Shown: positions 11,782-13,068 of the stretch, in pieces | How the letters are laid out: each line of letters starts with the position of its first letter | How positions within the stretch are numbered: the first letter of the stretch is position 1 | From: Candidatus Dormibacteria bacterium | GTDB taxonomy: Bacteria; Chloroflexota; Dormibacteria; Aeolococcales; Bog-877 | Assembly: GCA_050734135.1 (NCBI GenBank) | Contig: JBOHUG010000039.1 | Span: 4,134 to 68,133, forward strand | DNA: 64,000 nt | Reading direction: 5' to 3' | Position numbers and translations under genes: made by a program | Notes under the pieces: model-generated | Database searches by the model: none | What the model was told of the DNA's origin: nothing | Seen by the model: the letters and a program-made list of their open reading frames with translations, nothing else

Positions 11782-13068
11782 TCACGAAGGCTGAATTGAG
11801 AACTCCGCTCGGAGCCGGGTGACGGCCTCCCGGGCGGCCACGGTGAGCTCCAGAGCCAATCGTCGATCCAGATCGAGTGAGGCGGTTGTCTCGAGCGACT
11901 GCAGGCGCACCTCAAGCAGCTGCAACTGGTCCGCGATCTCGCCGGGAGTCGCCAGGGCCCGGAGGCGGGCCGCGGCTGCGGGGGCGGTTTCGCCCAGCCG
12001 TTTCGCCCGCTGGTAGTCTCCGAACGCCCGGCGGTCGCGGTCGGCGGCGAGCAGCAGTCGTACCGCTGCTTGCCCGGACTCTGAGATCTCTGCTGCCGGC
12101 GCGTGCAGCCGGCAGAGCCCGTCCAGAGCCGCCGCGAGTGCGCCCGTGATCGCAGCCGCCGCCGCGCCACCCGCTGCGTCCCGCGGGGAGAGCATCCGGG
12201 CGACCGTCTCGAGCAGCGACCAGGAGGCGACCGGCCCTGGCTGCAGACCTCCGAGATCCGTCAGGGAGAGCAGAGCCGAAACTGAGGTGATACGGCCGAT
12301 TCCGCCCGGTACCGGCGTCACCCGGGCGGCGCCCGCCGCAGCGGCCGGGGTGACGTCGCCCCGGAGCTGCCCGTCGACCATCGAGGTGCCCACGTCGAGG
12401 ACTGTGGTACCGGGCAGGATCGCATTCGCGGGCATGACCCCGGCGATTCCGATGGCTGAGATCAATATGTCATAGGGGGGTAGTGGATCGACTCCAGCGA
12501 TGTCGCTCTGGATCACCGAGACCTGAGCTCCGGTGGCCAGGAGCCGCTGGGCGATCGGGCGACCGCCGGTCGGACCGTGGCCGACGACCAGAATTCTCGC
12601 TGCGGAGCAATCGATCCCAAGATGAACCAGGGTCGCGAGGCAGGCTTCGGCGACGGGGGTTCCGCGACGACGCCCGTCGGCTGCCGCTGCCAGGGCCGCC
12701 GGGGTGACGGCCTCGACGTCCTTGCTGGCAGGCAGGTGGGCGGCCACCACGCCACCGGGGAGTGATTTGACCGGCTGCACCACCACCACGCCGTTCACGG
12801 TGGGGTCCACCACCAGGGCATCGAGAGCGGTCGGGGTTGTCTCAGCTTGGTCCCGCGGCACGGTCCGGTGCACGACTTCCACGCCCCCGGCGACCGCTTC
12901 CCGTTCCAGGGACCGGGCGAACGAGCCCCCGGCGATGTTGCCCTCCTCGACCACTACTCCCAGTCGGTAGGGGCGCTGGCGCGCCTTCACGCGGCCCGCC
13001 AACCGCCCGCGCAGCTCCTCCAGGAGGGGAGAGAGGTTTACCACCTCGGCCGGGACCAGGTCCGTCAC
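11782..13068 (-). CDS. FolD-like methylene-THF dehydrogenase domain fused to a C-terminal FTCD_C/Fch-type (cyclodeaminase/cyclohydrolase) domain
   Basis: The N-terminal two-thirds aligns to FolD (KDVEAVTP, VVGHGPTGG, TPVPGGIGRIT). The last ~150 aa (GGAAAAAITGALAAAL...DRDRRAFGDY...) look like FTCD_C. Start GTG 13068 was chosen by alignment to FolD N-termini and by the drop in GC3 upstream; the ORF runs to 13203. Confidence 0.75.
   Translation of the reverse strand: MTDLVPAEVVNLSPLLEELRGRLAGRVKARQRPYRLGVVVEEGNIAGGSFARSLEREAVAGGVEVVHRTVPRDQAETTPTALDALVVDPTVNGVVVVQPVKSLPGGVVAAHLPASKDVEAVTPAALAAAADGRRRGTPVAEACLATLVHLGIDCSAARILVVGHGPTGGRPIAQRLLATGAQVSVIQSDIAGVDPLPPYDILISAIGIAGVMPANAILPGTTVLDVGTSMVDGQLRGDVTPAAAAGAARVTPVPGGIGRITSVSALLSLTDLGGLQPGPVASWSLLETVARMLSPRDAAGGAAAAAITGALAAALDGLCRLHAPAAEISESGQAAVRLLLAADRDRRAFGDYQRAKRLGETAPAAAARLRALATPGEIADQLQLLEVRLQSLETTASLDLDRRLALELTVAAREAVTRLRAEFSIQPS

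Follow-up and report, generated by a model that had tools for sequence, protein, structure and literature searches.

The two reactions of bifunctional FolD, the methylene-tetrahydrofolate (THF) dehydrogenase and methenyl-THF cyclohydrolase steps, can be divided between separate proteins. In Clostridium perfringens, FolD acts as the dehydrogenase and FchA as the cyclohydrolase, according to the account of Aluri et al. 2016 given in PMC7219735. Neighbouring fchA and folD genes occur in clostridia and in syntrophic acetate oxidisers (PMC3584212), and acetogens usually rely on Fch as their cyclohydrolase (PMC7325909). In FolD, Lys56 cooperates with Gln100 and possibly takes part in proton transfer during the cyclohydrolase step; the substrate is bound by Tyr52, which stacks against its p-aminobenzoate ring, and by Asp125, which holds the pterin (PMC3368264). 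Here, we describe a gene in a 64,000-nucleotide stretch of DNA from Candidatus Dormibacteria bacterium, a soil bacterium of the phylum Dormibacterota (GenBank assembly GCA_050734135.1, contig JBOHUG010000039.1, positions 4,134 to 68,133 of the forward strand), hereafter called the window, which has a G+C content of 67%. This gene encodes, in one polypeptide, a FolD-like half deprived of the catalytic lysine and a helical half related to FTCD_C/FchA proteins. The product is probably a single-chain pair of FolD (dehydrogenase) and FchA (cyclohydrolase), which would have two separate sites for the interconversion of methylene-, methenyl- and 10-formyl-THF.

The gene lies within an open reading frame (ORF) at positions 11782-13203 of the minus strand, where a GTG start at 13068 yields a product of 428 amino acids (aa). 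This product is 100% identical to a protein of an NCBI metagenome-assembled genome (P0001), the gene call on the source contig (80.8 kb, with the same gene order) agrees, and the same GTG is used by NCBI and in all homologues. The coordinates of a preliminary description, made from the sequence alone, thus reproduce P0001 in both length and sequence. Public records call the fusion protein "hypothetical" or "bifunctional FolD", neither of which is an apt description. Its parts are the following, with the evidence for each in brackets.

11782-13068, minus strand: complete gene, 428 codons plus the stop at 11782-11784 (N-termini of homologues align to the GTG start)
12709-13068, minus strand: strongly divergent catalytic (folate-binding) subdomain of FolD, aa 1-120 (Pfam; family profile against PDB)
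12907-12921, minus strand: F50-A-R-S-L54, which replaces Y-x-x-x-K of FolD, the catalytic Lys becoming Leu (translation, alignments)
12769-12783, minus strand: V-V-Q98-P-V, with the counterpart of human Gln100 (Gln98 in E. coli) kept (alignments)
12709-12723, minus strand: K-D-V-E119-A, which replaces K-D-V-D-G, the equivalent of the pterin-binding Asp125 being an invariant Glu (alignments)
12259-12708, minus strand: FolD-type Rossmann domain for NAD(P) binding, aa 121-270, where conservation is highest (Pfam, Foldseek)
12556-12582, minus strand: G163-H-G-P-T-G-G-R-P dinucleotide loop, a GxGxxG where FolD has G-R-S-x-x-V-G-x-P (alignments)
12499-12522, minus strand: V-S-V-I-Q-S-D189-I at the end of beta-2, where FolD has V-T-x-C-H-S-[KR]-T (alignments)
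12286-12318, minus strand: T-P-V-P-G-G-I-G-R-I-T, the FolD signature loop (TPVPGGVGPMT in FolD), kept (alignments)
12217-12258, minus strand: inter-domain linker, aa 271-284, DLGGLQPGPVASWS, predicted to be flexible (pLDDT below 50 for residues 276-284 of the full-length model)
11785-12216, minus strand: C-terminal five-helix domain of FTCD_C (cyclodeaminase/cyclohydrolase) fold, aa 285-428, about 40 residues shorter than stand-alone members
12124-12192, minus strand: L-S-P-R-D-A-A-G-G-A-A-A-A-A-I-T-G-A-L-A-A-A-L, degenerate counterpart of S-P-x-P-G-G-G...G-A-L of FTCD_C (PGGG to AAGG)
12022-12042, minus strand: D-R-D-R-R-A-F, counterpart of D-x-x-A-F of FTCD_C, kept, with D, D and R invariant

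The N-terminal part is FolD-like, as was first proposed, by Pfam, profile and structure comparisons. The Rossmann domain is clearly recognised by the Pfam model THF_DHG_CYH_C (PF02882, E 1.3e-21), while the catalytic subdomain matches THF_DHG_CYH (PF00763) only below threshold (E 5.9e-5, 23.7 bits, cut-off 32.8). A profile of 23 family members compared with the PDB retrieved 26 FolD/MTHFD sequences and nothing else, with a best E-value of 3.3e-32 and an alignment starting at profile position 3-8. The AlphaFold model of the full-length protein (pLDDT 81.6) superimposes on FolD structures with TM scores of 0.75-0.79 over about 285 columns (Foldseek).

A hidden Markov model (HMM) alignment to E. 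coli FolD (1b0a) pairs F50 with the Tyr and L54 with the Lys of the YxxxK motif, and the same register was obtained with MAFFT when canonical and lysine-free FolDs were included. The replacement had been placed at about 12924-12901, an interval which contains the motif, and neither alignment with canonical FolDs reveals a lysine at a shifted position nearby. Opposite the E. coli motifs Y-V-A-S-K, V-Q-L-P-L, G-A-S-N-I-V-G-R-P and T-H-R-F-T, the protein reads F50-A-R-S-L54, V-Q98-P-V, G163-H-G-P-T-G-G-R-P and I-Q-S-D189-I, respectively, and the peptides KDVEA, GHGPTGGRP and TPVPGGIGRIT, quoted in the preliminary description, were found at the positions listed above. F50, R52, L54, Q98, E119 and the GHG..GGRP loop are invariant among the 23 family members. 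With the equivalent of Lys56, the residue linked to the cyclohydrolase reaction is lost, whereas the protein still has a Phe for stacking, the Gln and an acidic ligand for the pterin. As a general rule of Rossmann folds, a GxGxxG loop combined with an acidic side chain where beta-2 ends favours NAD+ over NADP+. Position 189, about 21 residues after the loop, is D or E in 20 of the 23 members, and together with the loop it weakly suggests a preference for NAD+.

The C-terminal 145 or so residues are all-helical in both predicted models and adopt the helical-bundle fold of the FTCD_C family. A direct search with the Pfam model FTCD_C (PF04961), the check first proposed, formally fails (E 0.53, 10.4 bits, cut-off 24.5), but the domain is homologous to FTCD_C by four independent routes, all of them profile or fold methods. 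When the C-domain profile was compared with the PDB, the top sequence match was 1o5h, a Thermotoga formimino-THF cyclodeaminase (E 0.01 over 100 residues). Among 1.84e9 representative proteins, its only matches outside the family are three proteins of about 200 aa, all Pfam FTCD_C members (E 1e-22 to 1e-26), and hhalign against a profile of four FTCD_C sequences gave a probability of 98.1% (E 8.8e-14, 139 columns). TM1560, deposited as a formiminotetrahydrofolate cyclodeaminase, is the best match in structure and sequence, rat FTCD ranks third, and the methenyl-THF cyclohydrolase of M. extorquens (7vg4) is among the closest structural matches; the structural scores do not separate cyclohydrolase (EC 3.5.4.9) from cyclodeaminase (EC 4.3.1.4). 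The domain covers template columns 9-163 of 204, the last helix region being absent, and an Asn that is invariant in the four reference FTCD_C sequences falls in the missing part. P0092 and P0094, the nearest stand-alone FTCD_C relatives of the C-domain, have no adjoining FolD gene and so give no clue to how the fusion arose.

The fusion is genuine. The same uninterrupted ORF is found in about 55 protein clusters, with products of 419-432 aa that are 59-87% identical, and a scan of GTDB, with one genome per species, returned 42 loci, 40 of which are full or near-full-length matches and two fragments at contig ends. The loci include long-read assemblies, with a 2.49-Mb chromosome (OY969577.1), and a 2.39-Mb contig (CAWDQV010000001.1). 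All are apparently Dormibacterota; a few records with implausible names show the same synteny. Mean pairwise identity is 67% in the N-subdomain, 73% in the NAD domain and 67% in the C-domain, and 56 of 150 positions in the NAD domain and 44 of 141 in the C-domain are invariant; both halves are under purifying selection. The fusion gene is also better conserved than the adjacent murE in every locus (e.g., 82 versus 79%, 62 versus 58%). The intact ORF in 40 GTDB records, together with this conservation above murE, excludes a frameshift artefact, the possibility raised at the outset.

Protein searches returned no protein with both halves outside Dormibacterota, no dedicated survey of independent fusions having been made, and a search with a chimeric FolD-FTCD_C profile gave a candidate list filled by near-identical relatives of P0061, a FolD described below, and was thus uninformative about other fusions. 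No solved structure containing FolD and FTCD_C together was present among the PDB sequence and Foldseek matches. Three over-long proteins of the lysine-free FolD clade, found in the search with P0083 (P0256, P0269 and P0284), were rejected as fusions since they carry no FTCD_C; they resemble, respectively, an internal duplication or a misassembly, a wrongly called start or upstream extension, and a read-through of about 200 aa of Arg/Ser-rich low complexity. Several other records deserve a remark. The Dormibacterial locus occurs with 63-87% identity and the same gene order in DATLTJ010000053.1, DATKSI010000018.1, DATKSV010000137.1, DATLUG010000041.1 and DATKRN010000039.1 (L011, L019, L034, L043 and L045), whose titles (Acidiferrales, Micrarchaeaceae archaeon, Nanopelagicaceae, Micrarchaeia archaeon and Verrucomicrobiia, respectively) look wrong. 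In P0062, the C-terminal 170 or so aa equal P0064 and the N-terminus is unrelated (Y-E-R-G-A), which points to a possibly chimeric contig. The lysine is still present in the FolD P0079 (Y-L-R-M-K), which has a GHG loop and E-R-D-A-D-A instead of K-D-V-D-G.

The best match outside the family, P0061, is a stand-alone FolD of 278 aa in which the motif reads Y-L-R-S-I, encoded 4 nucleotides downstream of a gene for an FTCD_C protein of 211 aa. Similarly, P0083 (Y-M-R-S-I) and P0268 (Y-V-R-S-L) are encoded just downstream of FTCD_C genes of 213 and 217 aa, while P0338 (Y-V-Q-S-I, in L057) has no FTCD_C gene directly upstream. The arrangement was hence found in three of the four cases that were looked up, at the following positions.

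L004, 335-1810: FTCD_C gene directly upstream of a lysine-free FolD gene
L052, 4217-5885: the same arrangement
L056, 384-2055: the same arrangement

All 117 relatives of P0083 among the matches listed lack the lysine and follow the pattern [Y]-x-[RQ]-[SA]-[I/L], with the motifs YVRSI, YMRSI, YVRSL, YLRSI, YARSI and YARSL. One cluster of this Y-x-R-S-[I/L] clade has 3478 member sequences, and its proteins are publicly named bifunctional FolD or K01491. These gene pairs match the FolD/FchA pairs of the literature, and a lysine-free FolD with a separate FTCD_C protein appears to be a widespread arrangement that existed before the fusion. The F-A-R-S-L of the Dormibacterial protein fits the pattern [Y/F]-x-R-S-[I/L] of the FchA-partnered clade, with the FTCD_C partner present in cis, and common descent of its N-domain with this clade is suggested.

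The favoured reading is that aa 1-270 form a FolD-derived methylene-THF dehydrogenase, which would keep the dinucleotide fold, the Gln and the acidic pterin ligand but would lack the Lys and the Tyr hydroxyl that FolD needs for its cyclohydrolase chemistry. The C-terminal 145 residues, an FchA/FTCD_C-type domain, would perform the cyclohydrolase step from methenyl-THF to 10-formyl-THF. Connected by a flexible linker, the two domains could provide both reactions of bifunctional FolD at separate active sites of a single chain. The architecture, the homologies, the residue replacements, the conservation and the precedent of the split pair are observed, while the two activities, their direction and a possible channelling between them are what we infer. 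The core of the preliminary description, a dehydrogenase joined to an Fch-type cyclohydrolase, is consequently retained as the best reading, given the FolD homology, the loss of the lysine and the FTCD_C homology. The order of events that it proposed, a decay of the FolD cyclohydrolase followed by replacement in cis, is probably wrong, since stand-alone FolDs with Y-x-R-S-[I/L] already adjoin FTCD_C genes. The division of labour would most likely have arisen in trans, and the fusion most likely formed from such a pre-existing pair of genes (lysine-free folD and fchA) in the stem lineage of Dormibacterota.

Several observations weigh against this reading. The N-domain is only marginally nearer to the lysine-free clade (29-34% identity, mean 71 bits) than to canonical FolDs (27-30%, 67 bits), two groups that are themselves 43% identical to each other, and the order of the halves, FolD then FTCD_C, is the opposite of the fchA-folD order in the split pairs. 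More generally, the N-part is 27-34% identical to other FolDs, which are 43-50% identical among themselves, and its best score with the NCBIfam FolD equivalogs is 84.9 bits against a cut-off of 465, far below every model (cut-offs 333-559). The C-domain stays under the Pfam threshold and lacks both the last 40 or so residues and the PGGG motif. Both domains are extreme outliers and the fusion protein sits on a long branch, which may reflect an altered substrate or an inactive domain. Within FTCD_C, moreover, sequence cannot tell a cyclohydrolase from a cyclodeaminase, and the loss of the lysine was read in clade sequences, the characterised monofunctional enzymes being compared by description only.

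The surroundings of the gene bear on some of the alternatives.

10716-11777, plus strand: zinc-dependent alcohol dehydrogenase (ADH), left of the fusion gene and on the opposite strand
9237-10730, minus strand: murE, left of the fusion gene
between murE and the hut genes, minus strand: glcD-like FAD oxidase, then hisC-like aminotransferase
870-6668, minus strand: hutH-hutU-hutF-hutI cluster, left of the fusion gene
13178-14884, plus strand: metallo-beta-lactamase-fold (MBL) protein fused to a rhodanese domain, right of the fusion gene
14926-15264, plus strand: HIT protein
15349-16539, plus strand: rhodanese-MoeB/MoeZ adenylyltransferase
51768-53108, minus strand: folC (TIGR01499, 319 bits, cut-off 163)

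The block murE-(ADH)-fusion gene-(MBL/rhodanese)-HIT-moeZ is kept across Dormibacterota, whereas the hut genes vary in distance and orientation among related loci. The MBL-rhodanese, HIT and MoeB/MoeZ trio, which looks like a sulfur-transfer set, adjoins the fusion gene across the phylum. The presence of folC indicates that the organism makes folylpolyglutamates. No riboswitch of the ZTP or THF type was detected upstream of the fusion gene, only a tRNA reaching threshold in the window. Elsewhere in the window, three ORFs (16894-17973, 20110-20928 and 41941-43542, all on the plus strand) have no Pfam match at E <= 1e-5 and a coding-type composition (G+C at third codon positions 0.79-0.82); the counterparts of the first two are likewise unannotated in two related loci (L001 and L003). 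Directly after a serA gene, which encodes an ACT-domain phosphoglycerate dehydrogenase, comes a gene for a DUF1015 protein (23309-26155, plus strand), and the hut cluster is adjoined by rsmG rather than by an N-formylglutamate deformylase gene.

A dehydrogenase joined to a formimino-THF cyclodeaminase would convert 5-formimino-THF, derived from histidine or purine breakdown, into methenyl-THF and ammonia and then reduce the methenyl-THF to methylene-THF, a lysine-free FolD preventing its loss to 10-formyl-THF. The cyclodeaminase label of TM1560, the third place of rat FTCD in the structural ranking and the presence of hut genes at no more than 10 kb, both in the window and in about half of the related loci, all speak for this reading, which is nonetheless improbable. 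The cluster encodes HutF (formimidoylglutamate deiminase, 578 bits, cut-off 362), which hydrolyses the formimino group and releases its imino nitrogen, so that the group is not passed to THF, and neither the window nor the loci listed showed a gene for glutamate formiminotransferase (FTCD_N). The preliminary description had placed the gene one gene away from the hut/murE block and hinted at a metabolic tie. The hut genes are in fact four genes away, behind murE, the glcD-like and hisC-like genes and the opposite-strand ADH; nearly half of the related loci, some with short flanks, have no hutH match within 10 kb; and the pairs of lysine-free FolD and FTCD_C elsewhere are not beside hut genes. 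An operon or functional link with hut was therefore rejected on account of the distance, the variable arrangement and the HutF route. It is also unlikely that the dehydrogenase alone is active and that the C-domain is a non-catalytic module serving oligomerisation, folate-polyglutamate binding or regulation. The domain's shortness by about 40 residues, the change of PGGG to AAGG, the loss with the missing part of the reference-invariant Asn and the failure of the Pfam model would agree with such a role, but numerous polar residues in it do not vary within the phylum (W, S, E, R, D, T, D, C, R, H, S, D, D, R, R and others), the D-x-x-A-F motif is kept, and methenyl-THF would be left to slow spontaneous hydrolysis unless another enzyme exists.

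Another possibility, which we regard as rather doubtful, is a neofunctionalised paralogue that acts on another pterin or one-carbon substrate beside a canonical FolD, or a FolD half turned pseudoenzyme, like the N-terminal domain of MTHFD1L. The unusual divergence of both halves, the remodelled cofactor loop GHGPTGG and the pterin-binding motif KDVEA would fit it. Conversely, the genomes are small (2.39 and 2.49 Mb), the gene is found in all Dormibacterota lineages recovered by the scan and is conserved above murE, conservation peaks in the dinucleotide domain, Gln98 and TPVPGG persist along with an acidic residue where FolD has Asp125, and x-R-S-[I/L] agrees with the FchA-partnered clade. When two canonical FolDs were compared by tblastn with the fetched loci and the window, about 0.7 Mb that all comes from the same region, only the fusion gene was matched. 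No Dormibacterial entry appeared by name among weak FolD matches, the source contig beyond one end of the window holds only ABC transporter, BioY and Fe-S assembly genes, and literature on Dormibacter and folate gave nothing useful on a canonical FolD. As a speculation to which little weight should be given, the fusion could be the sole FolD-type enzyme of the phylum, that is, a rebuilt housekeeping enzyme with two sites, an NAD-type GxGxxG loop and possible channelling, or else its divergence could signal a new substrate or reaction such as formimino-THF handling, a non-folate pterin or reductive formate assimilation. Finally, a fusion created by a frameshift or by assembly deserves practically no credence: the 55 or so clusters stem from independent projects, the only two GTDB loci in which the gene is not continuous are the end-of-contig fragments, and the linker pattern P-G-P-x-A-x-W-S is invariant in the family.

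The fusion has consequences for annotation. It acts as a natural "Rosetta stone", in that it provides a functional tie between lysine-free FolD homologues and FTCD_C/FchA proteins, and supports annotating the Y-x-R-S-[I/L] clade as monofunctional dehydrogenases needing a separate cyclohydrolase rather than as "bifunctional FolD". Metabolic reconstructions of Dormibacterota are affected by how the fusion protein is named. If active, the protein would be a compact single-chain module for 10-formyl-THF and methylene-THF, of practical interest for synthetic formate assimilation, for which Fch and MtdA are at present produced as two proteins (PMC12844395). The "FchA-MtdA bifunctional enzyme" mentioned in the same paper was set aside as an FTCD_C fusion, since at about 37 kDa it is presumably an ordinary FolD. 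The fusion opens no long-standing question and offers a test case in which a shared active site is replaced by two fused ones.

Compared with canonical FolD (E. coli FolD and the D/C part of human MTHFD1), the fusion protein has in common the fold, Gln98, TPVPGG, the acidic pterin residue and presumably the net reaction. It differs by the absence of the catalytic Lys and Tyr, by another cofactor loop, by the added C-domain and by scores far below the NCBIfam cut-offs. Other natural fusions of these families have different partners, eukaryotic FTCD being a formiminotransferase joined to FTCD_C and MTHFD1 (C1-THF synthase) a FolD joined to Fhs. The MtdA and Fch enzymes of Methylobacterium extorquens and other serine-cycle methylotrophs, with which the protein was initially compared, are not fused, and MtdA also uses methylene-tetrahydromethanopterin. 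The analogy fails for MtdA, as the Dormibacterial N-part is a FolD proper and no MtdA chain is present among the PDB matches of the family profile at E <= 0.01.

The closest analogue is instead the pair of FolD and FchA found in Clostridia, acetogens and actinobacteria-like lineages. Both components and their partnership have been described before; our searches turned up no account of the covalent fusion, of its conservation across a phylum, of the remodelled cofactor loop or of so strong a divergence. The split pair draws on the same two families with the same division of labour, and its clade motif Y-x-R-S-[I/L] is near F-A-R-S-L. It consists, however, of two genes, fchA then folD, whereas the Dormibacterial protein is one polypeptide, FolD then FTCD_C, in which Tyr is replaced by Phe, Asp125 by Glu and GRSxxVG by GHGPTGG, and whose halves are far more divergent, the FTCD_C part being about 40 residues shorter.

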